A DNA stretch of 42,844 nucleotides, taken from IMG/VR virus record IMGVR_UViG_3300028047_000001; one strand, written 5' to 3'. Positions 1 to 13,704 of this stretch are shown one piece after another. The position numbers and the translations under genes are program-made. The DNA comes from a virus. The notes under the pieces were generated by a model, which searched no databases, was not told where the DNA came from, and saw only the letters and a program-made list of their open reading frames with translations. Every line of letters begins with the position of its first letter. Positions within the stretch are counted from its first letter, which is position 1.

Positions 1-99
1 TATGGCCAAGTTTAAACTGGCCTGTCGCAGAACGCTGTGGCGAGCTCGCTGGCTGGGGGGTTTTAGTTTCCGCTACGTCCATACCAAAAACTCGCTCAA
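1..99. repeat. Terminal direct repeat, copy 1 (identical to 42746..42844); circular-closure overlap
   Basis: Bases 1-99 match 42746-42844 base for base. The TerS-like ORF starting at 42827 lies partly in the repeat, and sequence context continues at base 100. Confidence 0.95.
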
Positions 100-134
100 T
101 GGCACTCAGCGGCCTTCCTACGCGATCCTAGGGC

Positions 135-629
135 CTATTTAATCGTCCAGTTGACCACGCCGCCGACTGCGCCATTGGTTGCGTCGGCCAAAGGCTCACC
201 GCCGGTAATGCAAAATCCGATGCCATTCACGACCGATGCGCTGAGCGAGCCGAGATTTGGTGCAAAGCTTCCGGCCACGTTGGAGCCAACGCCGGGCAGA
301 ATATACACACCGATTTGGCCAGGCAGAGCCCCGGCAACTGGCGTTGCGGCGAGGTCGTAGAGGTGCAGGAACATGTTTGTCGCAGCGATATTTTGCAGGG
401 ACACTTCAATGATTTGGTGTGCACTTGGGATAGCGATTGTGCCGCAATTAGTCGAGACGGTAGTGAGTGTTACGAATTTCTGGCCGCCCTGAAAAACGCC
501 GCCGGATTGAGCATGGGCGCCAGGGTTGCTGAACCATGTCCCGTAGGCCGCTATGGCCACCCATACGGCCATCATGACTGGCATGAATGATTTTGTCAGA
601 TATTTCAAGCTCTTGCTCCTGCGGCCCAC
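135..629 (-). CDS. Exported protein of unknown function (Sec-type signal peptide)
   Basis: 164-aa ORF with hydrophobic segment MPVMMAVWVAIAAYG and an AHA|QS cleavage-like site, followed by Gly/Val/Ser-rich beta-type sequence. The real start may be the internal Met at about 584. It is the last gene before the TerS-like gene across the circle junction. Confidence 0.55.
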   Translation of the reverse strand: MGRRSKSLKYLTKSFMPVMMAVWVAIAAYGTWFSNPGAHAQSGGVFQGGQKFVTLTTVSTNCGTIAIPSAHQIIEVSLQNIAATNMFLHLYDLAATPVAGALPGQIGVYILPGVGSNVAGSFAPNLGSLSASVVNGIGFCITGGEPLADATNGAVGGVVNWTIK

Positions 630-684
630 AGCGCCGCCCCGACCAGGATTGCGGCCAGAATTGCACCGAATAGTGCGATGCGGA

Positions 685-1158
685 TCATTTTTCAGGTTCT
701 ACTCGCTTCGGTTCGGTTTGTAAACCCAGTTTTTTTGGCCATCCTTTGGCCTGCGAATCCAGCGGTCCTGATGACCTTGTCCAGTCCCTGATTTTTGGCG
801 GCGAAGAGCCCCGTGGAATAGCCCTTAGCCCAGCCACCAAGTCCTTGAATTCATTCGTGATTTTCTCGCGCTCATCGCCTGAAATATCAGGCTCCGGCAA
901 CTGCGGAAGCAGTGGATATCCTCGGACAGCAGACTTGAACGCTGCTTGGTAGATTTCGCCAACCGAGGGAAGAAAACCTTTCGAGCCAATCTCACCCTTC
1001 GCCGCTCTAGAGCAGGCATCGATTACTCGATGCGGCGGTAGCAAGCCAAGCACCTCCCAATAAACCTCAAACTTGAGCTTTCTCTCAGTCTCGGTCCCGG
1101 TCAAATTGTAGCATTGAAACAATTTTAGGATCGCTTTCTTCGCGTCTTCGTTTGTCAT
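685..1158 (-). CDS. Replication-module protein, helicase loader/inhibitor (G39P-like) candidate
   Basis: 157-aa ORF directly downstream of the initiator-like gene. The N-terminal pattern KKAILKLFQCYNL...KFEVYWEVLGLL...FLPSVGEIYQAA resembles phage helicase-loader proteins. It overlaps the upstream ORF by 74 nt. Confidence 0.4.
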   Translation of the reverse strand: MTNEDAKKAILKLFQCYNLTGTETERKLKFEVYWEVLGLLPPHRVIDACSRAAKGEIGSKGFLPSVGEIYQAAFKSAVRGYPLLPQLPEPDISGDEREKITNEFKDLVAGLRAIPRGSSPPKIRDWTRSSGPLDSQAKGWPKKLGLQTEPKRVEPEK

Positions 1159-1858
1159 CCTCTATGTCCTTAAGCACTGATTTCACAAAGCCTTCGTTCC
1201 CGTTTGAGCGCCCATTGCCGCCATTCGGTTCGAACTTTCCGACGTTTCGGACCCATGTCCGCCAGGCGGCATGCCAGTCCGCGAACAGTGAACGGTTTTT
1301 GAGGTGGTGGTCTCGAAACTGAGCCCACTCGTGTTTAGTCTGGCTTACGCTTAACCCTGAATCATGAGCAAAACCCAAGTCAAACGGGTGAGGGCCATCG
1401 TCGGAAGCGATTTCGGTTTTTGGTTTTGGTTTTTTGACAATAGCGATAGCTATTGGTTTTATCTTTCTTTCTTTCTTATCTTCTCTCTTCTCTTCTGGGG
1501 CGTTCGGTTGCGTTCGTTTGCGTTCGTTTCTCCACGCTTTCGCTCTAGCTGCGCTTCCATCCTCCCGTAATGGTTGACGTTTCTCCCACGACTTCAAGCG
1601 ATTGTTTAAGATTATCTTGCCTTCCATGGCCTGCCTAATTGCCCTCACTTCGGCCTCTTTCATGTCCATCGCAGCGCCAACATCCTCATCGTCCCAACCT
1701 ATGAGTTCGCCTGCGTTCGGTTGCGTTCGCGATGCGCAAATGAGCATGAAATTGAAGACGGCGATAACCTCCGGAATGGGCCGCCCAGCCTTTTTAGCCA
1801 CAGTCCGCCATTTCGGGTCTGACGGCATATCCTCCCATAGGCGCACCCAGTTGGTCAT
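1085..1858 (-). CDS. Replication initiator / replisome-organiser-like protein
   Basis: 257-aa ORF whose N-terminus (NWVRLWEDMPSDPKWRTVAKKAG...) resembles phage replisome-organiser wHTH domains, followed by a Lys/Glu-rich linker. The gene contains iterons and a T-rich tract (see ori feature). Its start overlaps the upstream stop as ATGA. Confidence 0.5.
   Translation of the reverse strand: MTNWVRLWEDMPSDPKWRTVAKKAGRPIPEVIAVFNFMLICASRTQPNAGELIGWDDEDVGAAMDMKEAEVRAIRQAMEGKIILNNRLKSWEKRQPLREDGSAARAKAWRNERKRTQPNAPEEKREDKKERKIKPIAIAIVKKPKPKTEIASDDGPHPFDLGFAHDSGLSVSQTKHEWAQFRDHHLKNRSLFADWHAAWRTWVRNVGKFEPNGGNGRSNGNEGFVKSVLKDIEDDKRRREESDPKIVSMLQFDRDRD
1411..1732. other. Putative origin of replication embedded in the initiator gene
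   Basis: Tandem 10-mers GCGTTCGGTT GCGTTCGTTT GCGTTCGTTT at 1500-1529, and GCGTTCGGTT GCGTTCGCGA at 1713-1732. Palindrome CAATAGC-GATA-GCTATTG at 1438-1455. T-rich / polypyrimidine tract at 1411-1499. Confidence 0.5.
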
Positions 1859-2442
1859 GCCACCATCCCCCTCGTCTCCAGCAGCTCCATGAAATACCCG
1901 GTAGGCGCCCCGTTACGCCTCCATTCGGCCCTAATCTGGCCCAATCCAGGCGCGAACCACATCTTGGCGCCATCGATCCTACCGCCTCCCCATTGCTGCC
2001 CGTAAGTCAGGACCAGAACCTCCATGAATGTCCCCGCCTTTGTTTCGTAAAACGGAATAATCTCATGGAATATTATAACCTGCGACCCATATTGGCCGAA
2101 CAATCCGGACGTCTCACACTGGCGGACTATAGTCGTACCAGTCTGCTCATTCCCGCCCCATTCAATCTCTTTCCCTGGTACACACGACACTTCACGAGCG
2201 TACTGCCATGGCCAGTTATACCACTTAGGAGGATAGTCATCGCGGTACTCGAGTACACCACGAATTGGATCTATCCGGTAGTACCAATCGCAATCCCATT
2301 TTAATTTGATTCTCTGGCGGAGGCGGAATCCGTCATAATAATCGCGAGTGTATGTCTGGATTATTCTACTGGAGAAGTAATTTGTAATAGTGTGTCCCTG
2401 CTTTGGTTGCGGCCAGTATATCCTTGCGTCAAAATGACTCAT
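1855..2442 (-). CDS. Hypothetical Trp/Tyr-rich protein (orphan)
   Basis: 195-aa ORF coupled on both sides by ATGA overlaps (2439-2442 and 1855-1858). It looks visibly more AT-rich than its neighbours and has aromatic clusters (WDCDWYYRIDP, PPKWYNWPWQYA). No family recognised. Confidence 0.6.
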   Translation of the reverse strand: MSHFDARIYWPQPKQGHTITNYFSSRIIQTYTRDYYDGFRLRQRIKLKWDCDWYYRIDPIRGVLEYRDDYPPKWYNWPWQYAREVSCVPGKEIEWGGNEQTGTTIVRQCETSGLFGQYGSQVIIFHEIIPFYETKAGTFMEVLVLTYGQQWGGGRIDGAKMWFAPGLGQIRAEWRRNGAPTGYFMELLETRGMVA

Positions 2443-2669
2443 TTCTGGCTCTCCCTGAATCGCATCAGCCCGGCTACAATCTTAGCTCGAGTTTTAAGTG
2501 TGTTCGGCTTGCGATTTGACCCCCTGAATTTCAATCCAAGCATTTGCGCCTTGCCGCCGATCGAATTCCTCGTCCGGCCCATCATCTCACCAGCTTCACG
2601 GTAGGAATAGCCCTCCTGGCATAGACGCTTGATGCGGGCTATCTGATAATCTGTCCATGCTTCTCTCAT
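2439..2669 (-). CDS. GcrA-like DNA-binding domain protein (N-terminal domain only)
   Basis: 76 aa. AWTDYQIARIKRLCQEGYSYREAGEMMGRTRNSIGGKAQMLGLKFRG parallels the GcrA N-terminus (SWTDERV..LKKLW.EGLSASQIA..LGGVTRNAVIGKVHRLGL). There is no C-terminal domain. Confidence 0.75.
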   Translation of the reverse strand: MREAWTDYQIARIKRLCQEGYSYREAGEMMGRTRNSIGGKAQMLGLKFRGSNRKPNTLKTRAKIVAGLMRFRESQK

Positions 2670-2678
2670 ACCGAAACC

Positions 2679-2969
2679 TCATTCAATGATATCCTGCAGG
2701 CGCTCTTCATACTTAAGCGTTTCCAGGCTGCTTGCGAACCGTTCGAACCTGCGCCTTAGCAAATATCCGGTGGTTGTCTGGGCGGCAAACATCGTGGACG
2801 TTATCAGGAAAGCTTGAATGAACGGATCAAACCCCATGAACCCTACGAACAACGGAACGGTAAAGCCGGTGGGGATTCCGATGGTCGAGCGGGTGGCCGC
2901 TTCTAGCAGCGAAGCGCGCCTGGTCTGGCTCATTTTTTTCCTTCTGGCGCAGTTCAGCGAGCCGGGCAT
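2679..2969 (-). CDS. Small membrane protein
   Basis: 96-aa ORF. The likely start is Met13 (ATG at 2933), preceded by AAGGA. Two hydrophobic segments (GIPTGFTVPLFVGFMGF, IQAFLITSTMFAA). Confidence 0.55.
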   Translation of the reverse strand: MPGSLNCARRKKMSQTRRASLLEAATRSTIGIPTGFTVPLFVGFMGFDPFIQAFLITSTMFAAQTTTGYLLRRRFERFASSLETLKYEERLQDIIE

Positions 2970-3039
2970 TGGCCCGCGTTAAATCGCCCTTTTTATAGCG
3001 GGGAATTGGTGTCAGATCACGCGGCCGGTTCCATGGCAT
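2827..3039 (-). CDS. Hypothetical small protein; only the 5' part looks coding, and it overlaps the next gene out of frame
   Basis: 70-aa ORF whose ATG (3039) overlaps the VRR-NUC stop. The first ~40 aa look protein-like (ANARLAELRQKEK); the remainder is Arg/His-rich out-of-frame-looking sequence overlapping 2679..2969. An A7 run sits at the junction. Confidence 0.3.
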   Translation of the reverse strand: MPWNRPRDLTPIPRYKKGDLTRANARLAELRQKEKNEPDQARFAARSGHPLDHRNPHRLYRSVVRRVHGV

Positions 3040-3443
3040 CAGTCCGGCCTGAATTTAATGCGCAGACAGCCCCATTCGTCAAAGATCATGCAGACGTCGT
3101 CGAGCGACCATGCGACGCAGTGCGGGATATCGCCAACCAGGCACCACTCCTGAAACTCTCGCTGCCCGGGCGTTAATATTTCGCCAACTCGCTTAAGCTG
3201 CAGGTAATGCATCAGCCGCGTTGATTGCTGGTGAAGCTGAAAATCCGGCCAATGCGGCGTTTTCCCCATTTGCTTTAGCTTGGCAGCTACACGAGGGTGT
3301 AATAACTCTCCGCCTGGGAAATGAGTGTGTTTCCATCCAGGGAGGCAATACTCGCGCAACATCTTCGCGACTGTGAAAGTAAGAGCGAGCTCCTTCGGCG
3401 GCGGGATACCTCCAGTCACAATGCCTTCCCTATGGCAAAACAC
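3039..3443 (-). CDS. VRR-NUC domain nuclease
   Basis: 134-aa ORF (GTG start; Met28 at 3362 is an alternative). HWPDFQL...HYLQLKRVGEILTPGQREFQEW...IPHCVAWSLDD fits the VRR-NUC pattern (PD...E/Q-x-K, ls..Q..f). Confidence 0.6.
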   Translation of the reverse strand: MFCHREGIVTGGIPPPKELALTFTVAKMLREYCLPGWKHTHFPGGELLHPRVAAKLKQMGKTPHWPDFQLHQQSTRLMHYLQLKRVGEILTPGQREFQEWCLVGDIPHCVAWSLDDVCMIFDEWGCLRIKFRPD

Positions 3444-3535
3444 GCGATCAGGATAAGCGCCGCATCAAAGAACGATTCCGTGTATCTGACGATTTCATCC
3501 AGCGTCCAGGCCGGGAATATGTTGAAAGGGTCCAT
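3416..3535 (-). CDS. Possible 39-aa small protein (below the ORF-track cutoff)
   Basis: ATG at 3535 with GAGG about 10 nt upstream. Encodes MDPFNIFPAWTLDEIVRYTESFFDAALILIACFAIGKAL with a hydrophobic C-terminus. Its end overlaps the 5' end of the VRR-NUC ORF. Confidence 0.25.
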   Translation of the reverse strand: MDPFNIFPAWTLDEIVRYTESFFDAALILIACFAIGKAL

Positions 3536-3552
3536 GGGCACTTAGCCTCTGC

Positions 3553-3623
3553 CAGAGAAAAGGGCCGCATCCGTTTTTCGATCACGCGCCATAGTCTAAA
3601 GACGCTGGTTCCGGATGCGGCCT
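3553..3623 (-). terminator. Long-loop hairpin followed by a U-rich tract (intrinsic-terminator-like)
   Basis: On the - strand, GGCCGCATCCG (rc of 3612-3622) pairs with CGGATGCGGCC (rc of 3563-3573). This is an 11-bp perfect stem with a 38-nt loop, followed by CTTTTCTCT. It lies in the 337-nt gap between the cro-like gene and the next early-left genes. Confidence 0.4.
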
Positions 3624-3779
3624 AGTTTCACGCGGGGATGCGAACCATGAACGGTCACCCGCGAGGTAGAGCGCCAGGGAACAAACCAGCGCCCGACGTG
3701 TTTCGGGACGCATCTTCGGGCCATTCACACCGGCCCTCTTCGACCTCGTGCGCTTCTGGAACCAGATCACGTCCCGAAC

Positions 3780-3986
3780 TTATTCTGCGGCCGGAGCCGC
3801 AGGAGGCAAAAAGTCATTAGGCGTCACGGAGCCGCCAGTCACCGCCACAATCTGCACCATATGCGAGCCTCTGGGTACCCTAGTCCCTCTGACCCAATAG
3901 TGCACCGCCACGCGCGTCACGCCAATCAGTTTGGCGAAAGAAGACAGCGTAACCTGGTTAGCTGTGAGATATTCTCTTAGAGTCAT
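3780..3986 (-). CDS. Cro/YdaS-like helix-turn-helix regulator
   Basis: 68 aa. LSSFAKLIGVTRVAVHYWVRGTRVP is a typical Cro/YdaS HTH. It is the first gene of the leftward unit, divergent from the rightward promoter. Confidence 0.7.
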   Translation of the reverse strand: MTLREYLTANQVTLSSFAKLIGVTRVAVHYWVRGTRVPRGSHMVQIVAVTGGSVTPNDFLPPAAPAAE

Positions 3987-3999
3987 TCCGTCACTTCAT

Positions 4000-4090
4000 A
4001 ACAAATCGTTTCGTGTGTCTAATCACGAATTATATAAGTCCGTAACATAATTGTGATGTAACGTCTTGTTGACAAGCGCAACGTTTTGTT
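4000..4090. promoter_or_regulatory. Candidate operator set in the divergent control region
   Basis: The 11-mer AACG-NN-TTGTT occurs at 4060-4070 (AACGTCTTGTT) and at 4080-4090 (AACGTTTTGTT), exactly 20 bp apart. An inverted copy sits at 4000-4010 (rc AACGATTTGTT). An imperfect inverted repeat, ATCACGAATTA (4022-4032) / TAATTGTGAT (4048-4057), is also present. Confidence 0.45.
4029..4057 (-). promoter_or_regulatory. Leftward sigma70-type promoter candidate
   Basis: On the - strand: perfect -10 TATAAT (rc of 4029-4034), a 17-nt spacer, and a weak -35 ATCACA (rc of 4052-4057). It lies upstream of the cro-like gene. Confidence 0.45.
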
Positions 4091-4097
4091 TCATATT
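4069..4097 (+). promoter_or_regulatory. Rightward sigma70-type promoter candidate
   Basis: Perfect -35 TTGACA (4069-4074), a 17-nt spacer, and -10 CATATT (4092-4097). The predicted start near 4104 coincides with the first base of the repeated leader unit. Confidence 0.6.
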
Positions 4098-4103
4098 CTC
4101 ATG

Positions 4104-4266
4104 GAAGCGCCAGAAATGGAGCCAGCTGTTTACCTTTCACAGCAAAATGCGCGGACGAATGTCCCTTCAGGCCCGCGACGCTTCACACAGGAGGAACTGA
4201 GAAGCGCCAGAAATGGAGCCCGATCTGAGAATGCGCGGGATGGTCTGATGTGGCCCGCGACGCTTC
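4104..4266 (+). ncRNA. Tandem structured 5' leader (two related units, 81 and 66 nt)
   Basis: Units are 4104-4184 and 4201-4266. They share GAAGCGCCAGAAATGGAGCC (20/20), AATGCGCGG (9/9) and GGCCCGCGACGCTTC (15/15). Each unit is closed by GAAGCG/CGCTTC, contains a CCA-GAAA-TGG hairpin and a CGCGG/CCGCG helix, and has different inserts between the conserved blocks. Each is followed by AGGAGGA. The overlapping 64-aa ORF reads the two units in different frames. Confidence 0.45.
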
Positions 4267-4281
4267 CCATAGGAGGATGAA

Positions 4282-4689
4282 ATGACATGTCTAATCGTAG
4301 GAGACAGCATCGCTGTCGGGCTGTCTCAGGTTCTCAAAGGTTGTTACGTCGCGGCACAGATCGGCGCATCCAGCGCTCAGATCTTGGCCGGCACCCCAGC
4401 GGCAACCGTCAACTTCGCTTATATCAGCTCGGGTACGAACGACGCGTGGAATCCTTCGTCCACCTTGGCGAACCTGATAGCGACCCGCGCGAAGATCACG
4501 GCCCGCAAGGTCGTTTGGATCGTGCCTATCGACCCAACAGTCGCCGGCATTGTCAGGCAAGTCGGCGCTCAACAGCCCGGCTTGCCGCGAACTGATCGCC
4601 ACGTTGCATTCGTTCCTGGCCCAGACAACATCCATCCTAGGGACTACCTGGAACTGCGCAGCGATGCTCTAGAAGACAACAAGAACTAG
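4282..4689 (+). CDS. Minimal SGNH/GDSL-type hydrolase
   Basis: 135 aa with no signal peptide. Block I LIVGDSIAVG, block III SSGTNDAW, block V PDNIHP (DxxH). Strong SD AGGAGGA lies 4 nt upstream. First gene of the rightward unit. Confidence 0.6.
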   Translation: MTCLIVGDSIAVGLSQVLKGCYVAAQIGASSAQILAGTPAATVNFAYISSGTNDAWNPSSTLANLIATRAKITARKVVWIVPIDPTVAGIVRQVGAQQPGLPRTDRHVAFVPGPDNIHPRDYLELRSDALEDNKN

Positions 4690-4701
4690 GAGGAACTGGA
4701 A

Positions 4702-5064
4702 ATGAAACTAGCAGATTGCGAACCGGAACAATCGCCATACTCGACAAACTCATGGGCCGCTCGCCGCCCGCCATCTATCGCCATGGCCCGGGCCAAACTC
4801 AGGATCGAGGCACAAGCTAAGCGCTGCCTGCGTGGGGCGATAAAAGACAGGGCGTGGGCATACGCGCGGCACCCCAGGGATATGGATGCGATCTCAGAGG
4901 ATCTGTCCAGCCTGCCCCCAAAGATTCTGGTATGTGCCTTGGAGATCATTATCGAGCATAAAACTCGCTGGTTCGGCTTTGGCGGCGAGGTTTCGGCCAT
5001 TAACCTGCGTGGCGCCATGCTTTATGCGCGCTGGGCCAGGCGTGTGGCCAATAGGAGGAAGTGA
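4702..5064 (+). CDS. Hypothetical protein
   Basis: 120-aa ORF preceded by GGAGGAACTGGAA. No recognisable motif. The antisense ORF 4686..5018 is judged a shadow. Confidence 0.5.
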   Translation: MKLADCEPEQSPYSTNSWAARRPPSIAMARAKLRIEAQAKRCLRGAIKDRAWAYARHPRDMDAISEDLSSLPPKILVCALEIIIEHKTRWFGFGGEVSAINLRGAMLYARWARRVANRRK

Positions 5065-5153
5065 TGTTCCTGCTTCTCTTTATAGGCTTCTGCATCACCA
5101 TCGCCGCCGGCTGCAGCCTTCTCTCATGCTTGGATGGGCGCCATGACCATTGA
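5064..5153 (+). CDS. Possible 29-aa hydrophobic / lipoprotein-like peptide
   Basis: The ATG overlaps the upstream TGA (GTGATG), with GGAGG 5 nt upstream. Encodes MFLLLFIGFCITIAAGCSLLSCLDGRHDH with a lipobox-like AAG|C. Confidence 0.35.
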   Translation: MFLLLFIGFCITIAAGCSLLSCLDGRHDH

Positions 5154-5346
5154 ACCGCTTACCTTCGATGACGCCCTAAAAATCTCAGAGCACATGCAAA
5201 AGAAAAGCCGAGACCGCATCCTGAGGGTCTTTATGAAGCAAAGCGCTGGGATGCTGGACGTCCGGGGCGCGTTTGTGGAAGCAGTGCAGCAAGAGCGCAA
5301 CTGGCTTACTATTGAATCTGTTGCACAAGGAACGCGCGATGATTGA
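5134..5346 (+). CDS. Hypothetical protein
   Basis: 70-aa ORF (alternative ATG at 5143). Its stop overlaps the exonuclease ATG as ATGATTGA. Confidence 0.5.
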   Translation: MGAMTIEPLTFDDALKISEHMQKKSRDRILRVFMKQSAGMLDVRGAFVEAVQQERNWLTIESVAQGTRDD

Positions 5347-6295
5347 AGTCCTTACTCCCAAGTCTCGCGAGGAATGGCTCCATCTCCGCAAGGACACTAT
5401 CGGCGCCAGCGAAGTCGCAGCAGTCCTAGGCGTCCACCCCTACATGACGCCATTCAAGCTATGGGCACTGAAGAGCGGCAAATGGGGGAACGACGAAACC
5501 AAGGCTATGCGGCGCGGCCGCATGCTGGAGGACGACTGTATCGAGATATTGCGGGAGGAACGGCCGGAGTGGACCGTAACGCCGAACGTCATTGGTCATG
5601 GTAGCAAATTCTATCGCGATGTTGATGCTGGCCTCTCCGCCACTCCTGACGCTTTGATCCAAAAGCGCTGTTTCGCCCCGCAGGACGCGTCCCAATTCGG
5701 CATCTGCCAAATCAAAACCGTGAACGAGCATACATTCCGCAAGGACTGGGCCGATAACAACGGCTCCATCCAGGTCCCAACTTACGTCGCTATCCAAGCG
5801 ATCCAGGAGGCGGACTTGACCGGCGCGTCTTGGGCCTGCGTAGCGGCATTTGTTGGCATGGACCTTGAGCCGCACATTATGGATGTTGAGCTACATGTCG
5901 GCATGATGGGCAAAATCCGCCGCAGAGTGCCGGAATTCCTTCGCCGTGTCCGTGACAATGATCCCCCACCGGTGGACTATGCGCGCGACGCCGAGACAAT
6001 CCGCGCCCAATATGCCGAGGATGATGGCGGCGAGGTCGATCTGTCCGGGAACGAGCGCGTCCAATCCCTACTCACTCAGCGCGGCGGATTCGCGCATCTC
6101 GAGAAGCAAGGTGACGCCGCCAGAGAATGGCGCGCTGGGGTAGACGCCGAGCTAATCCACATCCTCGGCAATGCCACGCGCGGCAACCTAGGCGACGGCC
6201 GCTATATCGAGGCCGCGACGGTCCGCAAGAAAGAATGCGTGCACAAGGCCACAACATTCCGGACTGTCAAGATTAAGCAAAGGAGAGAGAAATGA
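5339..6295 (+). CDS. YqaJ-type (lambda Exo-like) recombination exonuclease
   Basis: The track ORF starts at 5273, but Met23 (ATG 5339) is coupled to the upstream stop. REEWLHLRKDTIGASEVAAVLGVHPYMTPFKLW is the YqaJ N-terminal signature. Downstream acidic/Lys motifs fit the PD-(D/E)xK fold. Confidence 0.75.
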   Translation: MIEVLTPKSREEWLHLRKDTIGASEVAAVLGVHPYMTPFKLWALKSGKWGNDETKAMRRGRMLEDDCIEILREERPEWTVTPNVIGHGSKFYRDVDAGLSATPDALIQKRCFAPQDASQFGICQIKTVNEHTFRKDWADNNGSIQVPTYVAIQAIQEADLTGASWACVAAFVGMDLEPHIMDVELHVGMMGKIRRRVPEFLRRVRDNDPPPVDYARDAETIRAQYAEDDGGEVDLSGNERVQSLLTQRGGFAHLEKQGDAAREWRAGVDAELIHILGNATRGNLGDGRYIEAATVRKKECVHKATTFRTVKIKQRREK

Positions 6296-6540
6296 CCAAG
6301 GACATCACTTCGACATCAGGCGAGGAGCTGACGCAATTCGTCGAGAGAATCGAACGGCTAGAAGAAGAAAAGCAGGCTACGTCAAACGACATTGGCGAAG
6401 TCTACGCTGTCGTGAAAGCGCGCGGATACGATGTACGGGCCATCCGTCAAATCGTCAAAATGCGCAAGCTGGACCGCGATGAACGTAAGGAAATGGAGGC
6501 CATTATCGAGCTGTACATGGCCGCCCTGAACATGACGTGA
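6292..6540 (+). CDS. gapR: GapR / DUF2312 (UPF0335) family DNA-binding protein
   Basis: 82 aa. LTQFVERIERLEEEKQATSNDIGEVYAVVKARGYDVRAIRQIVKMRKLDRDERKEMEAIIELYMAAL aligns closely with Caulobacter GapR ([64 protein letters not shown]). Confidence 0.85.
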   Translation: MTKDITSTSGEELTQFVERIERLEEEKQATSNDIGEVYAVVKARGYDVRAIRQIVKMRKLDRDERKEMEAIIELYMAALNMT

Positions 6541-6585
6541 GCCACGCGATATGGCAATACGACATACTGTAACTGAGAGGAACCC

Positions 6586-7647
6586 ATGAACGACATCGTA
6601 ACAGTCGAAGACCGCATCGCATCCAAGATTGACACCAAGATAGCGGGGACCCTCCAGGTCTCTGATAAGGTTGGAGGCATAAGCTTCACTAATGCCGGAG
6701 AGGTGATGGAATTCGCCAAAATGCTTAGCATTTCCCAAGGCGCCGTTCCCAAACATTTGCGCGGCAATCCAGGCGCGTGCCTGGGCATCGTAATGCAGGC
6801 CATCGAATGGCGTATGTCGCCTTTTGCCGTCGCCAACAAATCGTACGTGGTGAATGACCGGCTTGCCTTCGAGGCCCAGCTTATCCATGCCGTTGCCATC
6901 CAGCGGGCGCCAATAGAAGGGCGCATTAGATTCGAATTCTCCGGTGAAGGTGCCACACGCAAGTGCACGGCCTCAGCTAAGCTTGCCGGCCAGCTGAAGA
7001 ATGGGAAAGGTGAACTAGAGGACCATTGGCTCTCATATACTTCTCCGGCAATCGGCGAAATCAAGGTCAAGAACTCGCCCCTTTGGGTCAGCGACCCAGA
7101 CCAGCAGCTAACCTATTATTCGGTGCGCGCTCTTTGCCGCAGGCATTTCCCGGACGTACTCATGGGCATCTTTGCCCCGGACGAATTTGACGGCCCGGCG
7201 CGGGCACGCGATGTAACACCAAAGCCGACGCTTGGCGAACGGCTTGACGCATTAGTCATCCGTGAACCCACTCCGGAAATCAACGTCCCAGAGGTTCCAG
7301 AGCCACCCTCACGCGAAGAAACCGACGAGGCATATCAAGCCACAGGCCTCGGCGTGTGGAAGGAACCGGTCAATTCTCGGGACGAAATCAACGTCCCTAA
7401 GGTTACACCGCTGTCGCCAGACGATAAAGAGCCGCTGCTCATAGCCTCAGCCATGGCGCAGGCTGCTTATGGTTCCAAGCCGTTCACCAAATGGCTGGCC
7501 AAGCTGTCCATGCCGGACTATGAGAGGATCGCGAAAAGCCTGCCGGAACTTAACAAGGTCGCCGCATCGGCCGACAGGCGAATGCAGAAGGAGATGGCGC
7601 CGGTTGTGCCATTCCACCCGCAGCCCGGCGAGGGGAGCGAAGGATGA
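6586..7647 (+). CDS. RecT/Redbeta-superfamily single-strand annealing protein
   Basis: 353 aa. NPGACLGIVMQAIEWRMSPFAVANKSYVV and SPLWVSDPDQQLTYYSVRALCRRHFPDVLMGIFAPDE parallel the lambda Beta blocks (LLIVANQYGLNPWTKEIYAF; PWQSHPKRMLRHKAMIQCARLAFGFAGIYDKDE). It sits next to the YqaJ exonuclease. The C-terminal ~130 aa extension carries a repeated EINVP(E/K)V motif. Confidence 0.7.
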   Translation: MNDIVTVEDRIASKIDTKIAGTLQVSDKVGGISFTNAGEVMEFAKMLSISQGAVPKHLRGNPGACLGIVMQAIEWRMSPFAVANKSYVVNDRLAFEAQLIHAVAIQRAPIEGRIRFEFSGEGATRKCTASAKLAGQLKNGKGELEDHWLSYTSPAIGEIKVKNSPLWVSDPDQQLTYYSVRALCRRHFPDVLMGIFAPDEFDGPARARDVTPKPTLGERLDALVIREPTPEINVPEVPEPPSREETDEAYQATGLGVWKEPVNSRDEINVPKVTPLSPDDKEPLLIASAMAQAAYGSKPFTKWLAKLSMPDYERIAKSLPELNKVAASADRRMQKEMAPVVPFHPQPGEGSEG

Positions 7648-7835
7648 CAAACTTTGATGTAATCGCGGACCGGATCATTTCAGCGGAAGGCGTTAGCTAT
7701 GCCATTGCCGCCTCGAGCGGCATAGCCGACGATCATTTCCGGGAGGCGCGGGAAGCCCTCAAGCGGGCAATCGTTGAGGCCTTGGAGGACGTCCTCATCG
7801 CCGCAACCGGCGCCATGAAAGACCACAATGCCTAA
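7644..7835 (+). CDS. Hypothetical acidic helical protein
   Basis: 63-aa ORF with an ATGA overlap to the annealase stop. Confidence 0.5.
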   Translation: MTNFDVIADRIISAEGVSYAIAASSGIADDHFREAREALKRAIVEALEDVLIAATGAMKDHNA

Positions 7836-7974
7836 ATCCCGCGTCAAGGAGCGCCGCAGGTGGCAGGCCGACATAAAGAAGCAGATGCAGCAGCACGGAG
7901 GCCGCCAAAAGCCGCCAGCGGTCTCCGCTGAGCATCCTAAGCCTATCCAAAAACCAAAGGAGGAAACGAAATGA
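7828..7974 (+). CDS. 48-aa basic protein with N-terminal arginine-rich motif
   Basis: Below the ORF-track cutoff. Coupled on both ends (ATGCCTAA at 7828-7835; ATGA at 7971-7974). Encodes MPKSRVKERRRWQADIKKQMQQHGGRQKPPAVSAEHPKPIQKPKEETK. Confidence 0.5.
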   Translation: MPKSRVKERRRWQADIKKQMQQHGGRQKPPAVSAEHPKPIQKPKEETK

Positions 7975-8216
7975 GGCTGCGCCCTAGATTGTTGATCCAG
8001 TTTCTATCCTATCTAGGCGGATACTTCTGGCTTCCATGCCCTATCTGCAAACGGCCGTTTTCAGGGTTCGAGGCGCGCAGCGATGCGGTATTGTTAGAAC
8101 GGCAAAGCGCTGGAATAGTTTTACCGTGCACGACGTTAACGTCAGGCCAATGTGTTTGCCCTGACAAACGCTGCATTGAAACGGCAAAGCGCTGGAATAG
8201 TTTTACCGTGCACTAA
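7971..8216 (+). CDS. Small Cys-rich protein (CPIC...CVCPDKRC), possibly a recently rearranged cassette gene
   Basis: 81-aa ORF with a strong SD. Hydrophobic N-terminus and two Cys pairs. It contains a 34-bp internal DNA duplication that is read in two different frames. Confidence 0.45.
   Translation: MRLRPRLLIQFLSYLGGYFWLPCPICKRPFSGFEARSDAVLLERQSAGIVLPCTTLTSGQCVCPDKRCIETAKRWNSFTVH
8098..8213 (+). repeat. Two identical 34-bp direct repeats separated by 48 bp
   Basis: AACGGCAAAGCGCTGGAATAGTTTTACCGTGCAC occurs at 8098-8131 and 8180-8213 (34/34). Each repeat is internally self-complementary (ACGGCAAA / TTTACCGT). The spacer contains the palindrome GACGTTAACGTC and the hairpins GTCAGG/CCTGAC and GTTTG/CAAAC. 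Confidence 0.9.
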
Positions 8217-8228
8217 GGAGGAAACGAA

Positions 8229-8825
8229 ATGAATGACAAATGGATCGGGCTACTCTTAGGCGCGGCGATAGGCTATTTCGCCTGTTATTCCATCGCCCAC
8301 GCGTCCGAGCACATGCGCTTTGAACCATGCGGTGGCGCCCGCGATTATCATGAGTGTGCCGTGATTACGATCTCAGGCCAAATCTTCCCTGCTGACCTGG
8401 CCGAGTTCATTGCCCGCATCAAGGACATCCGCCACGCACGCGTCGACTTGGCCGGGCCCGGCGGCGCCTTGCGCCCGGCGATCAATATCGGCGAGCATAT
8501 CCACGCCCGTCATTGGGATACCGCCGTGCTGCCAGACTCACAGTGTCTATCCGCCTGCGCCTACATTTGGCTCGCCGGATCGGCCAGGACTATGGGGCCC
8601 AAGTCCGTTCTAATGTGGCACTCGGCGTTCCTCGGAGAGGATGACCAGCACGCCGACGGCAATGGCAATGCCCTTATAGGCATGTACCTGGCCCATATGG
8701 GGCTCGGCTATGACGCCGTCGATTGGATGGTTGGCAACGACCCAAACGATGAGAAGGCGGCATTTATGGACGCCAATGGCGTGCCGACCGAGAAGCAATT
8801 CCGCTTTATCAGGGGAACACAATGA
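8229..8825 (+). CDS. Exported ClpP/SppA-fold protein (COG3904-like periplasmic protein)
   Basis: 198 aa with a signal peptide ending AHA|SE. ITISGQIFPADLAEF...VDLAGPGGALRPAINIGEHI...TAVLPDSQCLSACAYIWLAGSART...WHSAF fits the periplasmic ClpP-class pattern (SPGG...C.SAC...aG..R). Confidence 0.55.
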   Translation: MNDKWIGLLLGAAIGYFACYSIAHASEHMRFEPCGGARDYHECAVITISGQIFPADLAEFIARIKDIRHARVDLAGPGGALRPAINIGEHIHARHWDTAVLPDSQCLSACAYIWLAGSARTMGPKSVLMWHSAFLGEDDQHADGNGNALIGMYLAHMGLGYDAVDWMVGNDPNDEKAAFMDANGVPTEKQFRFIRGTQ

Positions 8826-9103
8826 ACGAGATGCTGGCTCGGGTGGTCCGGGTTATCGTGGCCACTGATCATACCTACGAAGGGATGCTGACGAAAGACG
8901 ACGCCGCCAACATAGCCACCGCAGTTGTCGCCTCCATGCGAGTCCCAACACCAGCGATGATGGCAGCCGGAGCTAAGAAAGTAAAAGGCGGCACGCCGGG
9001 CGATTGCGCGGCGGCCGCCTGGAGAGCGATGATCGACGAGATACTTAGACCACCGGCGGAACAACCGTCGGCGGGGGAGTCGGGGGAACGCCCATCTTCA
9101 TAG
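8822..9103 (+). CDS. Hypothetical protein (last gene of the rightward unit)
   Basis: 93-aa ORF with an ATGA overlap to the upstream stop. Its 3' 59 nt overlap the convergent ORF 9045..9392. Confidence 0.5.
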   Translation: MNEMLARVVRVIVATDHTYEGMLTKDDAANIATAVVASMRVPTPAMMAAGAKKVKGGTPGDCAAAAWRAMIDEILRPPAEQPSAGESGERPSS

Positions 9104-9392
9104 CCGCAACGATCGCCGCATCATTGTCGCCAATATTAGCGAACAACGTATCGATTTCCTTCTGCATATCCGGAGTCATACCGGGGATTGCCGCGATCTT
9201 GGTCTCTAGGCCGTCGATAAACGCCATGAGCGCGCCGATGTCGGTCTTTTCCTGCGCCACCTTGGCGAGGATGTCTGATAGCATAGCCATGATATTGTTT
9301 GCCTTAGTTAGAAGTTGTTCAAGGAGGTCTGTGTTAAACTCAATCGCGTCCAGTGACCCCTGATCCAGACTGATTGTAAACGGCCAAGTCAT
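9045..9392 (-). CDS. Hypothetical protein (last gene of the leftward unit)
   Basis: 115-aa ORF with a helical middle and a Pro-rich tail (PPTPPPTVVPPVV). Confidence 0.5.
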   Translation of the reverse strand: MTWPFTISLDQGSLDAIEFNTDLLEQLLTKANNIMAMLSDILAKVAQEKTDIGALMAFIDGLETKIAAIPGMTPDMQKEIDTLFANIGDNDAAIVAAMKMGVPPTPPPTVVPPVV

Positions 9393-9404
9393 TTGTTGCC
9401 CCTG

Positions 9405-9953
9405 TTAAGACGATGACCTGAGGGATGTAGGCTGACGGTATGGCTGCGCTTGGTCCTTCTGCATCGCAAGGGCGAACATGCCGAGCGCCGCCGCAGCCGC
9501 GATGCCCGCGAATATCCAGGCTAGCATTTTTCCAGACCCTTCCTCGCGGCCGCCGGATTCGAATATCCTCTTCTTAAGCTCGTCAATATTGTCCTTGAGA
9601 GAGTCAAGCTGCTTCGAGAAGCTGGCCTTCATTTCATTCATTATGGCTCCGACACCGGTCTCGATCTTGGCCACCACCTTGTCTGACGCCGCCATGGCGG
9701 CATTCAGCGCGGTCTCAGAGCCAGCTAGGCGTGTCTGGACGACCCTGTCCAGCGACTCCGTCCGCTCCACGGAGCTTCGGATCTTCTCTTCGTGTAGCAC
9801 TTGAAGAGCGTCCACCCAGCCCTTTACCTCGGCGCGTTGCGACGCAATTTCCGAGCGTACCTGCTTGATCTCCTCGGCAAGCCTCTCTTTGGCGACAACC
9901 GACGGGTCAGGGTTAGGGATGTTTGACGGAGAAGAACCGGGAATTTCAGCCAT
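9405..9953 (-). CDS. Tail-anchored coiled-coil membrane protein (lysis-accessory / spanin-like candidate)
   Basis: 182 aa of long heptad-like helical sequence with a single C-terminal TM (MLAWIFAGIAAAAALGMFALAM). The start is coupled to the upstream micro-gene. It sits in the lysis region. Confidence 0.4.
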   Translation of the reverse strand: MAEIPGSSPSNIPNPDPSVVAKERLAEEIKQVRSEIASQRAEVKGWVDALQVLHEEKIRSSVERTESLDRVVQTRLAGSETALNAAMAASDKVVAKIETGVGAIMNEMKASFSKQLDSLKDNIDELKKRIFESGGREEGSGKMLAWIFAGIAAAAALGMFALAMQKDQAQPYRQPTSLRSSS

Positions 9954-10116
9954 GGATGGGGAACACGTGCCAACCGAGGAGGGCGAACAGGATGAATAGA
10001 ATTATCCAGTTGCCCCATATGCCGGACGGCCCGAACGTGCCGGGATTGCTGTTCCAGACGAAACCGAAAATAAGCCAAATCAGCATCAACACCCAGAACA
10101 CTATTGAGAACGTCAT
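9946..10116 (-). CDS. 56-aa two-TM membrane protein (holin/antiholin-class candidate)
   Basis: Below the ORF-track cutoff. Encodes MTFSIVFWVLMLIWLIFGFVWNSNPGTFGPSGIWGNWIILFILFALLGWHVFPIHG. Its stop overlaps the ATG of 9405..9953 (ATGGCTGA). Confidence 0.5.
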   Translation of the reverse strand: MTFSIVFWVLMLIWLIFGFVWNSNPGTFGPSGIWGNWIILFILFALLGWHVFPIHG

Positions 10117-10120
10117 TTTC

Positions 10121-10327
10121 CTATCCTTTGTTCAGCGCCGCGACATGCGCGCGCGGTACCACCATATAGCCGGCCGTCCATAGATCCTCTTGCACCTTGC
10201 CGGATATCTGCTCAGTGTACGGCGCGGCGTATGATTCCGCCAGGGCGGAAATACCCGCGATTCCAGTGTCTATGGACTTCTTTATAACCGCCCGGACCTT
10301 TGCGTGATCAGCGCCTTCGTTTGCCAT
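10121..10327 (-). CDS. Hypothetical protein
   Basis: 68-aa soluble-looking ORF that overlaps the endolysin 3' end by 20 nt. Confidence 0.45.
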   Translation of the reverse strand: MANEGADHAKVRAVIKKSIDTGIAGISALAESYAAPYTEQISGKVQEDLWTAGYMVVPRAHVAALNKG

Positions 10328-10724
10328 GGGCGATCGCCTTTACTGGAGAATGTTGAACATGCCCTTGTCTCGGGCTGCCAGCGCGAGCCACGGCCGCGCG
10401 ATAGGTAGACCATTGCGGCCCGTCGCCTTTCTCGAAACACCAGAGCGAGAAATCAACCTGAGCCTGCCAGGACGAGCTGTCCCAAGCATGTAATTTGGTA
10501 CTATGTGTGAAACTGTCGCCAAGGCCGCCATGTGGGAAGCGGTGCGAATGACCCCCATAGTGAAGCTGGAACGGCCCAAAGCTGGACCGGTCATCGCCGA
10601 CCATGTTCTGCCCGGAAGCGCTCTCAAGGCGGCAAACCTCAACCGCGAAGTTAGGGTTGACGCCGTAGTGCGACGCCCGCGCGCGTATATAGCCTTCCAA
10701 TGTGCCCCAAGTAGGCCAGCTCAT
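10308..10724 (-). CDS. SLT-type lytic transglycosylase (endolysin candidate)
   Basis: 138 aa. VEVCRLESASGQNMVGDDRSSFGPFQLHYGG carries the E-S...G-x-x-Q SLT signature. It is surrounded by small membrane proteins. Confidence 0.6.
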   Translation of the reverse strand: MSWPTWGTLEGYIRARASHYGVNPNFAVEVCRLESASGQNMVGDDRSSFGPFQLHYGGHSHRFPHGGLGDSFTHSTKLHAWDSSSWQAQVDFSLWCFEKGDGPQWSTYRAAVARAGSPRQGHVQHSPVKAIAHGKRRR

Positions 10725-10727
10725 GCT

Positions 10728-10985
10728 TCACCTCGGTTTCTGGACAAACTGCCCAGTCTTAGCATCGTATCTTGAATTGCTACCAGGTACAAAGCCGCCA
10801 TGTCCGTCAGGAATAATCGTCCCGCCGGCCAGGCCATCCTTCAGCTTCTCAGCCTCTCCAGACACAACCTTCATTATAAATGGGTACGCGAAGCCGAGAG
10901 GACCATAGAATAGGGCGCCGAGCTTTAGCAGCTCATTTATGACGGCAACCGCGCCGTCGATCTTTGCGTCGTGACTATCGGCCAT
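10728..10985 (-). CDS. Small membrane-associated protein
   Basis: 85-aa ORF with one hydrophobic segment (LGALFYGPLGFAYPFIMKVV). Confidence 0.45.
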   Translation of the reverse strand: MADSHDAKIDGAVAVINELLKLGALFYGPLGFAYPFIMKVVSGEAEKLKDGLAGGTIIPDGHGGFVPGSNSRYDAKTGQFVQKPR

Positions 10986-10990
10986 TCATA

Positions 10991-11254
10991 TCACGGGATA
11001 GGCGCCGAGACCGCGCGCGCTTGGGCTTCCACAGTAGCGGGCACAGAGCCGCCAGTAACATTACCGTCCTTCGCCGCCATCAGACCAGCGCTGGTAAGAG
11101 TCGCAACAAGCGAAAGAATTGTCTCACGCCATGGCTGAAGAGCCGGAATGAATGACGCGAGCGTAACCAGCAGGCTGAGAGCCCCAGATAGCGAGGTCTT
11201 CCAATTCACGATACCTAACAGTTTTGAAAACCAACTCATTTCATGATTCTCCAC
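10991..11254 (-). CDS. Holin-like protein (two TM segments)
   Basis: 87 aa. The probable start is MSWFSKLL (11239). TM segments are LSGALSLLVTLASFIPAL and ILSLVATLTSAGLMAA, followed by a polar C-terminus. Confidence 0.5.
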   Translation of the reverse strand: MENHEMSWFSKLLGIVNWKTSLSGALSLLVTLASFIPALQPWRETILSLVATLTSAGLMAAKDGNVTGGSVPATVEAQARAVSAPIP

Positions 11255-11296
11255 ATGGGCAAGAGACAGATGATCGCGGGCAGGTCGCTGTATTGG

Positions 11297-11446
11297 TTAA
11301 AATGCCAGAACACCATGAAAAACATAGGCCATCATCCACAGCATGGCAACCGCAAACCACTGCACATTATGCTCCCATTGGGTCATTTTGCGGGCGGCTA
11401 CGGGCGGACGAAGGCCAATTCCTATGAGGTAGGCCTCGGGGTTCAT
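11297..11446 (-). CDS. 49-aa single-TM peptide
   Basis: Below the ORF-track cutoff. The ATG lies 2 nt after the stop of 11449..12675. Encodes MNPEAYLIGIGLRPPVAARKMTQWEHNVQWFAVAMLWMMAYVFHGVLAF. Confidence 0.4.
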   Translation of the reverse strand: MNPEAYLIGIGLRPPVAARKMTQWEHNVQWFAVAMLWMMAYVFHGVLAF

Positions 11447-11448
11447 GG

Positions 11449-12675: not shown

Positions 12676-13034
12676 TTGCAGATCCAGAACAGTTTGACCT
12701 GGCCGTCTCTAGGATCGACCATATGCTGCCAGCAATTTTCATTGCTCCAGGCTTGCCCGGCGGCGATGAATGGCGTTTCCACCACGTTGCCAACGCCAGC
12801 GGCGACGGTACCGACGACCGCCCCAGCGGCATTAAACGGCGCGGCGAGCCACGACCCAAGGCCCCATTCAGGGGCTGGCACTGGCTGCTGAGCCGGCATG
12901 ACATGCCACCGCGGGGCCGGAGCATGGTGGTGGACAATAACCGGCGCTGGGGTGTGAATGACGACCGGCGCTTGCGCATATGCTGGCGAGATAGACGAGA
13001 GCGTCGCAGCTAAAGCCAAATATCTGAGTTTCAT
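12672..13034 (-). CDS. Exported small protein
   Basis: 120 aa with a signal peptide ending AYA|QA, a His/Pro-rich stretch (VIVHHHAPAP), and two C-terminal Cys. Confidence 0.55.
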   Translation of the reverse strand: MKLRYLALAATLSSISPAYAQAPVVIHTPAPVIVHHHAPAPRWHVMPAQQPVPAPEWGLGSWLAAPFNAAGAVVGTVAAGVGNVVETPFIAAGQAWSNENCWQHMVDPRDGQVKLFWICK

Positions 13035-13556: not shown

Positions 13557-13567
13557 TGCCTTATTCC

Positions 13568-13693: not shown

Positions 13694-13704
13694 TTCCGTA
13701 TCCT

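Follow-up and report, generated by a model that had tools for sequence, protein, structure and literature searches.

A stop-codon-linked family of structured leader RNAs in early operons of uncultured phages, present in tandem behind a predicted promoter in a soil-metagenome virus

Here, we analyzed the 5′ leader of the rightward early operon (positions 4104 to 4281) in IMG/VR virus record IMGVR_UViG_3300028047_000001, a soil-metagenome scaffold of 42.8 kb which is called the window below and always meant at its full length. Several described systems come close to this leader. Phages T7 and T3 have intercistronic RNase III signals; in T7, these are processed such that a hairpin remains on the upstream RNA, while the downstream RNA receives a defined 5′ end. 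In trp-type attenuators and in translational coupling, the position of a ribosome decides which of several exclusive helices is formed. The nut site of phage lambda consists of boxA and boxB, the latter being a 5-bp stem with a GNRA-like pentaloop, and the put sites of phage HK022, one per early operon, are two stem-loops just after PL and PR which act on RNA polymerase without a protein. A 5′ stem-loop of the ompA type blocks 5′-end-dependent decay in Escherichia coli. The start-associated sequences and their extended forms (SAS/ESAS) of Cluster K mycobacteriophages are repeats of 13–17 bp upstream of many gene starts with imperfect inverted repeats nearby. Finally, the PeSLs of T4-type phages, each a stem-loop with an early promoter, flank variable small early open reading frames (ORFs), and it was proposed that they carry regulation along with the gene and mediate shuffling (PMC2839356, PMC4122927).

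The leader belongs to a well-supported and uncatalogued family of cis-acting leader and intercistronic RNAs of phages, the mechanism of which we infer. The family module resembles T7-type hairpins, ribosome-position relays and, in its genomic behavior, PeSLs. It is a member of none of these systems because it has no internal promoter, leader peptide, terminator, boxA or Rfam match, and its cleavage is hypothetical. Tentatively, and as a possibility somewhat short of probable, we favor the explanation that it is a portable leader for cistron starts, the closure of which is gated by a terminating ribosome or by an endonucleolytic cut, and which protects and insulates the start of each cistron.

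An original prediction made from the letters of the window had described two related units with three exactly conserved blocks behind a promoter, complementarities within the units, ribosome-binding sequences of which only one has a start codon, and an offset of reading frames. All of these statements about the sequence hold. The block GAAGCGCCAGAAATGGAGCC (20 nt) is located at 4104–4123 and, with an offset of 97 nt, again at 4201–4220, AATGCGCGG (9 nt) at 4146–4154 and 4230–4238, and GGCCCGCGACGCTTC (15 nt) at 4170–4184 and 4252–4266. With up to three mismatches allowed, the 20-mer has only these two sites in the window and none in 100 dinucleotide shuffles. The self-complementary segments GCTGT/ACAGC, GGAC/GTCC, CGCGGG/CCCGCG, GAAGCG/CGCTTC and CCA-GAAA-TGG are all present. 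The Shine-Dalgarno (SD) sequence AGGAGGA follows each unit (4189–4195 and 4271–4277), with a start codon (ATG at 4282) only after the second, and due to the 97-nt offset the shared blocks fall in different frames of an ORF at 4086–4280.

The whole three-block unit was recovered by three independent scans, with the 5′ block alone, with the 3′ half alone, and with the 5′ and middle blocks. The three-block pattern gave 37 metagenome loci (L numbers below designate loci) and no match in 185,579 reference genomes (GTDB). With a frame-based pattern, eight matches were obtained in GTDB, of which only L061 is genuine, being one true copy on a 219-kb contig of a metagenome-assembled genome (MAG) labelled uncultured Alphaproteobacteria. 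From 49 distinct units we derived a covariance model, R1, which gave 59 matches at E < 1e-5 (40 non-redundant sources) and some ten weaker, more divergent copies in addition. In total, about 60 distinct copies were obtained in some 35–40 uncultured viral or metagenome contigs and the one alphaproteobacterial MAG, and nearly all matches within a locus lie on one strand, co-oriented with the genes. The window has exactly two matches, scoring 64.9 and 60.3 bits; these scores arise partly by construction, as both window units are in the seed alignment, and they agree with the prediction that the units are true copies of one family. Since the search patterns required the conserved blocks, part of the block invariance is an ascertainment effect. 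Searches of GenBank phages (INPHARED) by blastn with the window region and with the consensus module gave no match, and the conserved block strings were found in no paper of the searched literature. The original prediction could name no known riboswitch class, and in Rfam 15 likewise neither the window nor any of 15 homologous loci had a match at the gathering threshold; at permissive thresholds (E up to 10; up to 1) there was nothing relevant either, including riboswitches, ribozymes and tRNA/tmRNA.

The commonest form of the unit in our sample, which we call class A, has a consensus that begins with the helix P1 (GAAGCG/CGCUUC), directly followed by a 3-bp hairpin P2 (CCA-GNRA-UGG) and a conserved AGC(C). 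A variable linker V1 of 7–50 nt, the sequence AAUG and the helix P4 (CGCGG/CCGCG) come next. The P4 loop opens with AU and closes with GC, and after P4 there is one A or C, then the P1 3′ strand, then AC. Over 69 matches aligned by fitting to R1, 98.7% of the cells are paired compared to 20–58% in slid registers. Covariation is sparse (12 double-change cells vs. 1.4 in shuffles) because the stems are mostly invariant. Nevertheless, the compensatory changes suggested as a check do occur in P1 and P4 of homologues: P1 reads GGGGUG/CACCCC in L018 and GAGCG/CGCUC, with both strands shortened, in one copy of L019, and P4 reads UGCGG/CCGCA, GUGCGU/GCGCAC or CGAGG/CCUCG. Several copies contain G.U pairs. 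P2 loops are GAAA, GUAA, GCAA or, in two homologues, GAAAA, and L011 and L050 retain P2 with a long hairpin inserted in its loop. P1 and the GNRA-loop hairpin, both anticipated from the window alone, are therefore kept in the family, as is P4. V1 is not consistently a hairpin across units, and a pseudoknot between V1 and the P4 loop was rejected (mean z = +0.2; only 2 of 48 units below −2). As a separate observation, a CCUAGG palindrome (often UCCUAGG) recurs in V1 of 10 class-A units, e.g. in L017, L019, L022, L024, L025, L028 and L053. No pairing partner was found for it, and it could be a kissing or dimerization site or a recognition site.

The window leader is composed of the following features, with predicted RNA helices given under each unit:
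4069..4097, plus strand: sigma70-like early-right promoter TTGACA-17-CATATT (promoter scan; same TTGACA-29 nt-GAAGCG geometry in L024)
4104..4184, plus strand: unit 1, class-A leader domain (R1 match 4102–4188, E = 3e-16)
4104–4109 and 4179–4184, plus strand: 5′ and 3′ strands of unit 1 P1
4110–4119, plus strand: unit 1 P2, CCA-GAAA-TGG, followed by the conserved AGC(C) at 4120–4123
4125–4129/4139–4143, plus strand: local hairpin in the variable V1 of unit 1, followed by AAUG at 4146–4149
4150–4154/4173–4177, plus strand: unit 1 P4, followed by A4178
4185..4200, plus strand: linker between the units, with the SD-like AGGAGGA (4189–4195) lacking a start codon, then ACTGA (4196–4200)
4179..4206, plus strand: alternative inter-unit hairpin, CGCUUC of unit 1 with GAAGCG of unit 2, the orphan SD being in the loop
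4201..4266, plus strand: unit 2, class-A leader domain (R1 match 4199–4270, E = 7e-15)
4201–4206 and 4261–4266, plus strand: 5′ and 3′ strands of unit 2 P1, with P2 at 4207–4216 and AGCC at 4217–4220
4221–4229, plus strand: short V1 of unit 2, followed by AAUG (4230–4233), P4 (4234–4239/4254–4259) and A4260
4267..4284, plus strand: ribosome-binding region of the first gene, with CCAU, SD AGGAGGA (4271–4277) and ATG (4282–4284)

In isolation, unit 1 folds as P1, P2, V1 and P4 in the energy model. The reading frames of the units argue for conservation at the nucleic-acid level, as had been claimed: in the three frames, 27, 24 and 24 of the 49 units are open, and no frame is open in all of them. 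That the region is instead translated as the 64-aa ORF 4086–4280, the contrary case considered with the original prediction, is hardly conceivable. This ORF does exist, but it reads the two units in different frames, none of the three frames stays open through all 49 homologous units, linker lengths vary and are not multiples of three, and gene callers call nothing there on the source contigs. Comparative analysis thus demonstrates the class-A unit to be a conserved, strand-specific, non-coding structured RNA family, and the homologues support the view that such an RNA forms the 5′ leader of the rightward operon in the window. A tRNA-like identity was not indicated, as ARAGORN called no gene in the window and cmscan gave no tRNA/tmRNA match at E up to 10.

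The prediction covered the units only. The family adds a hairpin at the stop codon that competes with P1, and also versions without the interior, and both change what appears to be the functional core. Most copies outside the window have TGAC-NN(N)-TTCG and a GC-rich hairpin, P0, directly 5′ of the unit. By folding and alignment, P0 consists of UGA, a lower stem of 5–7 bp, a 2×2 internal loop and an upper stem of 7–13 bp. The lower stem is formed by C(G/C)(U/C)UUCG with CGAAG(C)G, while the sequence of the upper stem varies freely. In 41 sequences, 95.4% of the P0 cells are paired compared to 35–48% in slid registers, and 93 double-change cells were counted vs. 27 in shuffles, with none of 500 shuffles reaching the observed value. 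Because it includes U.G and G.U pairs, the structure is specific to the gene strand. The lower stem covaries with the GAAG segment, giving UUCA/UGAA in L052, UUCGA/UCGAA in L025 and UUUCUU/GAGAAG in L010. A second covariance model, R2, built for P0 modules, detected 72 of them in the loci and no P0 in the window, in which unit 1 follows the promoter and unit 2 the 3′ strand of unit 1.

The 3′ strand of the P0 lower stem is at the same time the 5′ strand of P1, so that the two helices are mutually exclusive. Changes are hard to accommodate in a strand with two partners, and we suggest this as the reason why GAAGCG and both of its partners are nearly invariant; in L018, there is no upstream partner, and P1 is changed wholesale. 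In the energy model, the free module has a lower-stem probability of 0.69 and a P1 probability of 0.20, and the latter rises to 0.58 when the first 12 nt are masked. In L019, L021 and L031 (GGAACGATCATGACGTTTCGG), an SD-like GGAA and an ATG overlap the TGA of the module (AUGAC) when modules are close together, and an upstream CGAAACG/GGAACG can pair with the CGUUUCG segment, possibly as a third partner in the chain. Two other explanations for the start of the module were rejected. TGAC as −35 element of an intercistronic promoter does not fit, as its spacing to GAAGCG varies with the length of P0 from 30 to more than 50 nt and a −10 element is lacking. A selenocysteine insertion (SECIS) or read-through signal at the UGA was discarded by reasoning from the alignments, in which neither the loops nor any downstream frame are conserved.

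The modules are tied to the neighboring genes on both sides. Of 36 modules, 26 have a TGAC whose TGA terminates, in frame, an open frame that spans at least 35 codons upstream (binomial p = 2e-6 vs. 1/3). In the remaining ones, the stop codon lies a few nucleotides upstream (3–16 nt in most) and never within the P0 hairpin. Downstream, the next SD and ATG usually follow 14–31 nt past the unit across an A-rich stretch; in the window, 15 nt separate the end of unit 2 from ATG 4282. Units are usually intercistronic and occur several times per genome, recurring every 300–700 nt between small genes; in other phages, almost all neighboring small early genes have one between them. Clusters of three or four modules within 1–2 kb are found in L008, L010 and L019 between small, often paralogous ORFs, and tandem copies are present in the window, L008 and L013. 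The genes downstream of units are heterogeneous, unrelated small early ORFs, and stop codons within the modules fall in more than one frame.

Some modules are reduced to P0 followed by just GAAGC, a loop of 4–6 nt and GCUUCA before the ribosome-binding site, and in others, an extended P1, GAAGCGCCAG(A)/(U)CUGGCGCUUC, encloses a different interior. Because of these minimal and other-interior modules, the constant core is, judged by sequence, a three-segment frame, in which segment A follows the stop codon, segment B is GAAGCG and segment C is CGCUUC. The class-A interior then is one of several inserts in the P1 loop, by far the commonest in our sample, which was itself ascertained with class-A patterns. 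The other interiors (L020 550–621 and 839–909, L029 5641–5751, L034 4516–4624, L051 894–976 and L052 933–1005), one of which, with about 110 nt, recurs in two contigs, may represent further structured RNA families.

The portable leader that we favor would work as follows. P1 could close only once the lower stem of P0 opens. Either a ribosome terminating at the UGA or an RNase III-type cut in the internal loop of P0 would free GAAGCG for pairing with CGCUUC. At the head of the mature or active cistron there would then be a closed structured domain, closely followed by an unstructured, A-rich ribosome-binding site. In the window, which has no upstream gene, a sigma70-type promoter would place the transcription start on the first base of P1 and thereby make the same 5′ boundary directly, with the domain present twice. 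The closed domain would shield the 5′ end from 5′-end-dependent decay and insulate the ribosome-binding site of each early gene from upstream sequence, while intercistronic copies would couple downstream expression to upstream translation or processing. Also, some factor may recognize the invariant nucleotides of P2, the junction and P4. Direct support exists for the family, its helices, P0 with its covariation, the exclusion between lower stem and P1, the anchoring to stop codons, the position before ribosome-binding sites and the promoter-proximal variants.

The distance between the UGA and the P0 upper stem is 9 nt. A ribosome holds about 9 nt of mRNA downstream of its A site. With this spacing, termination would place the ribosome so that it opens the lower stem and halts at the upper one. 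Like an attenuator, the module has one segment with two exclusive partners and the position of a ribosome is proposed to decide between them; in contrast to an attenuator, it has no leader peptide, no terminator and no visible SD sequestration, and the ribosome would terminate on a full-length upstream gene. As with the ompA hairpin, a helix is predicted to start at the 5′ end itself or no more than a nucleotide or two from it, but sequence conservation goes far beyond the need of a simple stabilizer. With SAS/ESAS, the module shares conserved repeats just 5′ of many phage gene starts; those repeats are short, belong to actinobacteriophages and have neither a multi-helix RNA domain nor a link to stop codons.

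Several results weigh against the favored explanation. In 10 of 36 modules, the stop codon precedes the UGA by a few nucleotides (3–16 in most), and a terminating ribosome would therefore fall short of the lower stem. A relay to the ribosome-binding site was considered and rejected: the complementarity of the freed 3′ strand (CGCUUC) to the ribosome-binding site is at shuffle level (mean z = 0.03, n = 39), and the predicted SD accessibility barely differs between the two states (0.39 vs. 0.50). Since such pairing is at chance, no output step is visible in the sequence. A purely structural role also leaves the near-invariance of P2, AGC, AAUG and P4 unexplained, for which ascertainment by the search patterns accounts in part. 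Furthermore, the folding check proposed with the original prediction came out negative, with energies of the single units no better than those of shuffles (z = −0.8 and −0.3) and the whole window leader likewise folding no better than shuffled sequence. The units alone are thus not thermodynamically special, and the structural case must rest on the homologues. The full window leader even prefers, in the energy model, the inter-unit hairpin, which excludes both P1 helices and reaches a pairing probability of 0.97 in the equilibrium fold of 4104–4300; in this model, the hairpin takes the role held by the P0 lower stem in other phages. Finally, start site, cleavage and influence on expression are all predictions from the sequence.

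The prediction had left the function between nut/put-like antitermination, a tandem riboswitch and a processing or stability element, and of these the last fits best, whereas the nut/put-like and riboswitch roles are not supported. A processing role in its plain form is endonucleolytic punctuation, in which the early polycistronic mRNA is cut at the first base of P1, with P0 as an RNase III-type site or with the class-A domain as catalyst or substrate (self-cleaving or an RNase P-like target); the promoter of the window would merely start transcription at the base of the cut site. P0 indeed fits the form of a T7-type site, as an intercistronic hairpin of about two turns (equivalent to 16–22 bp) with a conserved 2×2 internal loop adjoining GAAGCG, in 72 copies with the window itself lacking P0. 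In both systems, similar hairpins with an internal loop are repeated between early genes of a phage, several per genome, and such a multiplicity would suit punctuation, as would the P0-less units of the window and L024 that start at the predicted +1. Moreover, stacking of P1 (6 bp), a G.A layer and P4 (5 bp) could give about 12 layers ahead of the conserved unpaired A, an arrangement that would resemble an acceptor/T minihelix. Unlike the sites of T7 and T3, P0 starts at a stop codon, its lower stem shares a strand with P1, a multi-helix domain follows, the hosts are apparently alphaproteobacterial, and cleavage is hypothetical. No ribozyme or tRNA-like RNA was matched in Rfam even at E = 10, ARAGORN found nothing, and the shortest P0 hairpins are short for RNase III. 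Minimal modules and those with other interiors lack the class-A core, which hence cannot be the universal catalyst. On balance, we consider pure punctuation rather unlikely.

An alternative of somewhat lower likelihood, which we hold to be unlikely, regards the class-A domain as a phage-specific RNA class in its own right. It would be either a punctuation element that processes itself or directs an RNase at the first base of P1, or an aptamer for a host-state signal or a phage protein, and the terminating ribosome would license its folding via the stop-anchored P0, a logic that is not known to be described for intercistronic regions.

Positions next to promoters bear on a different set of explanations. 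TTGACA (4069–4074) and CATATT (4092–4097) are separated by 17 nt and give 10 of 12 sigma70-like matches, and in a promoter scan of positions 1–14000 this plus-strand site was joint best with a divergent minus-strand site (both 10/12). The predicted +1, about 7 nt past CATATT, is G4104, the first base of P1. In L024, a homologous helix-turn-helix (HTH) gene on the opposite strand is followed by TTGACA, 29 nt and GAAGCG, with the same spacing as in the window, then by a single unit and an unrelated 201-aa gene. The −10 element of L024 is weak (AATGTT, read by eye) and was not called by the strict promoter scan. In both cases, the unit is predicted to begin at +1, with P0 absent and the promoter in its place. 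In L050, a terminator-like hairpin with a T-run (AGGGCGTTTGCCCTATTTTCT) at 1011–1026 (motif strand), then CATGC-GAAGCG, lies upstream of a P0-less unit at 930–1001; this flank resembles TTCTCATG-GAAGCG of the window, and no −35 element is evident.

The gene layout around the leader places it at the head of the rightward early operon of a temperate-type phage. Two genes adjoin it:
3780..3986, minus strand: divergent HTH regulator of the Cro/CI type (Pfam HTH_3; PHROG transcriptional repressor)
4282..4689, plus strand: first rightward early gene, encoding 135 aa with a GDS...GTND...DNIH pattern, SGNH-hydrolase-like as read by eye

After the leader, the rightward order is the 135-aa protein, a 120-aa protein, a YqaJ exonuclease, GapR and RecT, and the leftward genes on the minus strand encode the HTH regulator, a DUF7220 protein and a GcrA-like protein. 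The 135-aa protein has no Pfam or PHROG match, its pattern resembles a minimal SGNH/GDSL hydrolase, and its relatives in IMG/VR are only C-terminal domains of larger structural-looking proteins. The search for orthologous leaders via neighboring proteins was fruitless: the 135-aa protein retrieved only unrelated structural-protein contexts, the 120-aa protein nothing, and an exact-protein look-up only the source contigs (99.98–100% identical). The intergenic region 3987–4103 is switch-like, with promoter-like sites at 4069–4097 (plus), 4057–4029 (minus; ATCACA-17-TATAAT) and 4075–4047 (minus); together with an AT-rich palindrome at 4027–4040, they are candidate operators for the HTH protein. 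The phage also encodes the GcrA-like protein (76 aa, 2439–2669, minus strand) and GapR (6292–6540, plus strand, E = 4e-29), which by sequence suggest manipulation of the host cell cycle or nucleoid. Typically, GcrA and GapR are alphaproteobacterial proteins. These marker genes and the one MAG match point to Alphaproteobacteria as hosts of the module-bearing phages. ARAGORN found 0 tRNA genes in the window.

With such a position, directly 3′ of an early promoter beside a repressor gene both in the window and in L024, the units could be sites of processive antitermination that modify the RNA polymerase leaving the promoter, either nut-like with a protein or put-like by RNA alone. In the window, a small GNRA-type hairpin and two structured units in tandem recall lambda nut and HK022 put. 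Compared with lambda boxB, P2 has 3 bp plus GAAA (six layers if a G.A mismatch is allowed), and the two homologues with GAAAA have a pentaloop as in boxB. However, boxA (CGCUCUUA-like) is absent from the leader, and for YGCTCTTWA with one mismatch no site occurs in 4000–4400 and the window-wide count is at chance. Pfam and PHROG recognized no N-like or Q-like protein in the early region, a weak negative because N proteins are hard to detect. There is also little to override, since the terminator scan gave no convincing plus-strand intrinsic terminator from 4100 to about 13300, with one weak 5-bp candidate at 7448–7465. The leftward operon has no copy, and elsewhere the unit is a multi-copy, intercistronic element tied to stop codons and ribosome-binding sites every 300–700 nt. 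Antitermination is therefore regarded as improbable.

The near-invariance of junction and loop nucleotides, together with a P1 that is replaceable wholesale (L018), would also suit a tandem riboswitch or a translational operator, with the invariant nucleotides of P2, the junction and P4 as binding site for a metabolite or for a protein of the phage or host. Besides the tandem copies in the window, L008 and L013, the fold of the window is in line with this idea: when P1 of unit 2 is open, CUUCC (4262–4266 plus C4267) can pair in the energy model with GGAGG of the SD. The window could in principle toggle between both units closed with a free SD and the inter-unit hairpin with a paired SD. The CUUCC-SD pairing is peculiar to the window and not general to the family, though, and a conserved terminator or SD-sequestering platform is missing, with no terminators after units. 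Neither the unrelated small early ORFs downstream nor the Rfam search point to a ligand, and interior-free modules are found at the same position. In the search for a possible trans-factor, only paralogous small ORFs and replication/recombination genes were common to motif-bearing loci; none is universal, and no protein is common to most loci. We regard a riboswitch or operator as quite unlikely.

The module could also be mainly a mobile gene-cassette boundary at the DNA level, its segments serving as recombination homology and the RNA fold being secondary, which would be compatible with the portable leader. Near-identical modules flank non-homologous small ORFs, many contigs contain arrays of paralogous ORFs, and the stop codons in more than one frame fit as well. 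The linker AGGAGGAACUGA of the window looks like an SD plus a module-opening ACTGA, as comparison with module flanks shows ACTGA(C) to open many intercistronic modules. Probably, two modules came to adjoin by loss of a small ORF with its P0 from between them, which would explain the second copy and the orphan SD. PeSLs are a precedent for such a boundary (PMC2839356, PMC4122927). Both are conserved composite intergenic motifs, present in many copies per genome next to variable small early ORFs, but the intercistronic modules have no sigma70-like promoter inside and combine stop codon, hairpin, leader and ribosome-binding site with alternative pairings. Strand-specific pairings with G.U pairs, copies co-oriented with the genes, and a fixed geometry to stop codon, SD and +1 argue for a function at the RNA level, so that a mainly DNA-level role appears improbable and ranks with antitermination in probability.

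Two further observations concern the surroundings of the modules. A second motif, directly 3′ of some class-A units, is a long hairpin of about 65–90 nt, CCGGACCGCUGCAA...UAUGCGGACAcCGCA...CACUGCUAGCCGCG-UUGCAGCGGUCCGG, found at L010 2212–2290 and L018 5637–5720 and also in L023, L036, L037/L030, L052 and L012. Among its 22 predicted pairs, 6 have compensatory changes in 7 sequences; it has no Rfam match and does not occur in the window. The paralogous small-ORF arrays consist of two to four ORFs of 70–125 aa starting with M-x-x-F-H/Y-E-G-Q, with a module before each ORF (L045 8237–9032, L048 104–1093, L010 460–2083, L019 and others). With members in 15 loci, they make up the largest protein cluster of the set and gave one weak Agenet/Tudor-like match; the window has none of these ORFs.

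If the proposed explanation is true, the module would be an uncatalogued, easily recognized element that organizes early-gene expression in a whole group of uncultured phages. It would represent a natural portable unit of stop codon, gate hairpin, leader and ribosome-binding site, in which one strand has two exclusive partners and the gate lies where a terminating ribosome could open it. The near-invariant core may indicate an RNA-binding factor or a ligand, and the module might be of use as a compact insulator part in synthetic operons. The family bears on how phages insulate or couple neighboring cistrons, on how 5′ boundaries of mRNAs are set without promoters, and on gene cassettes that carry their own regulation.

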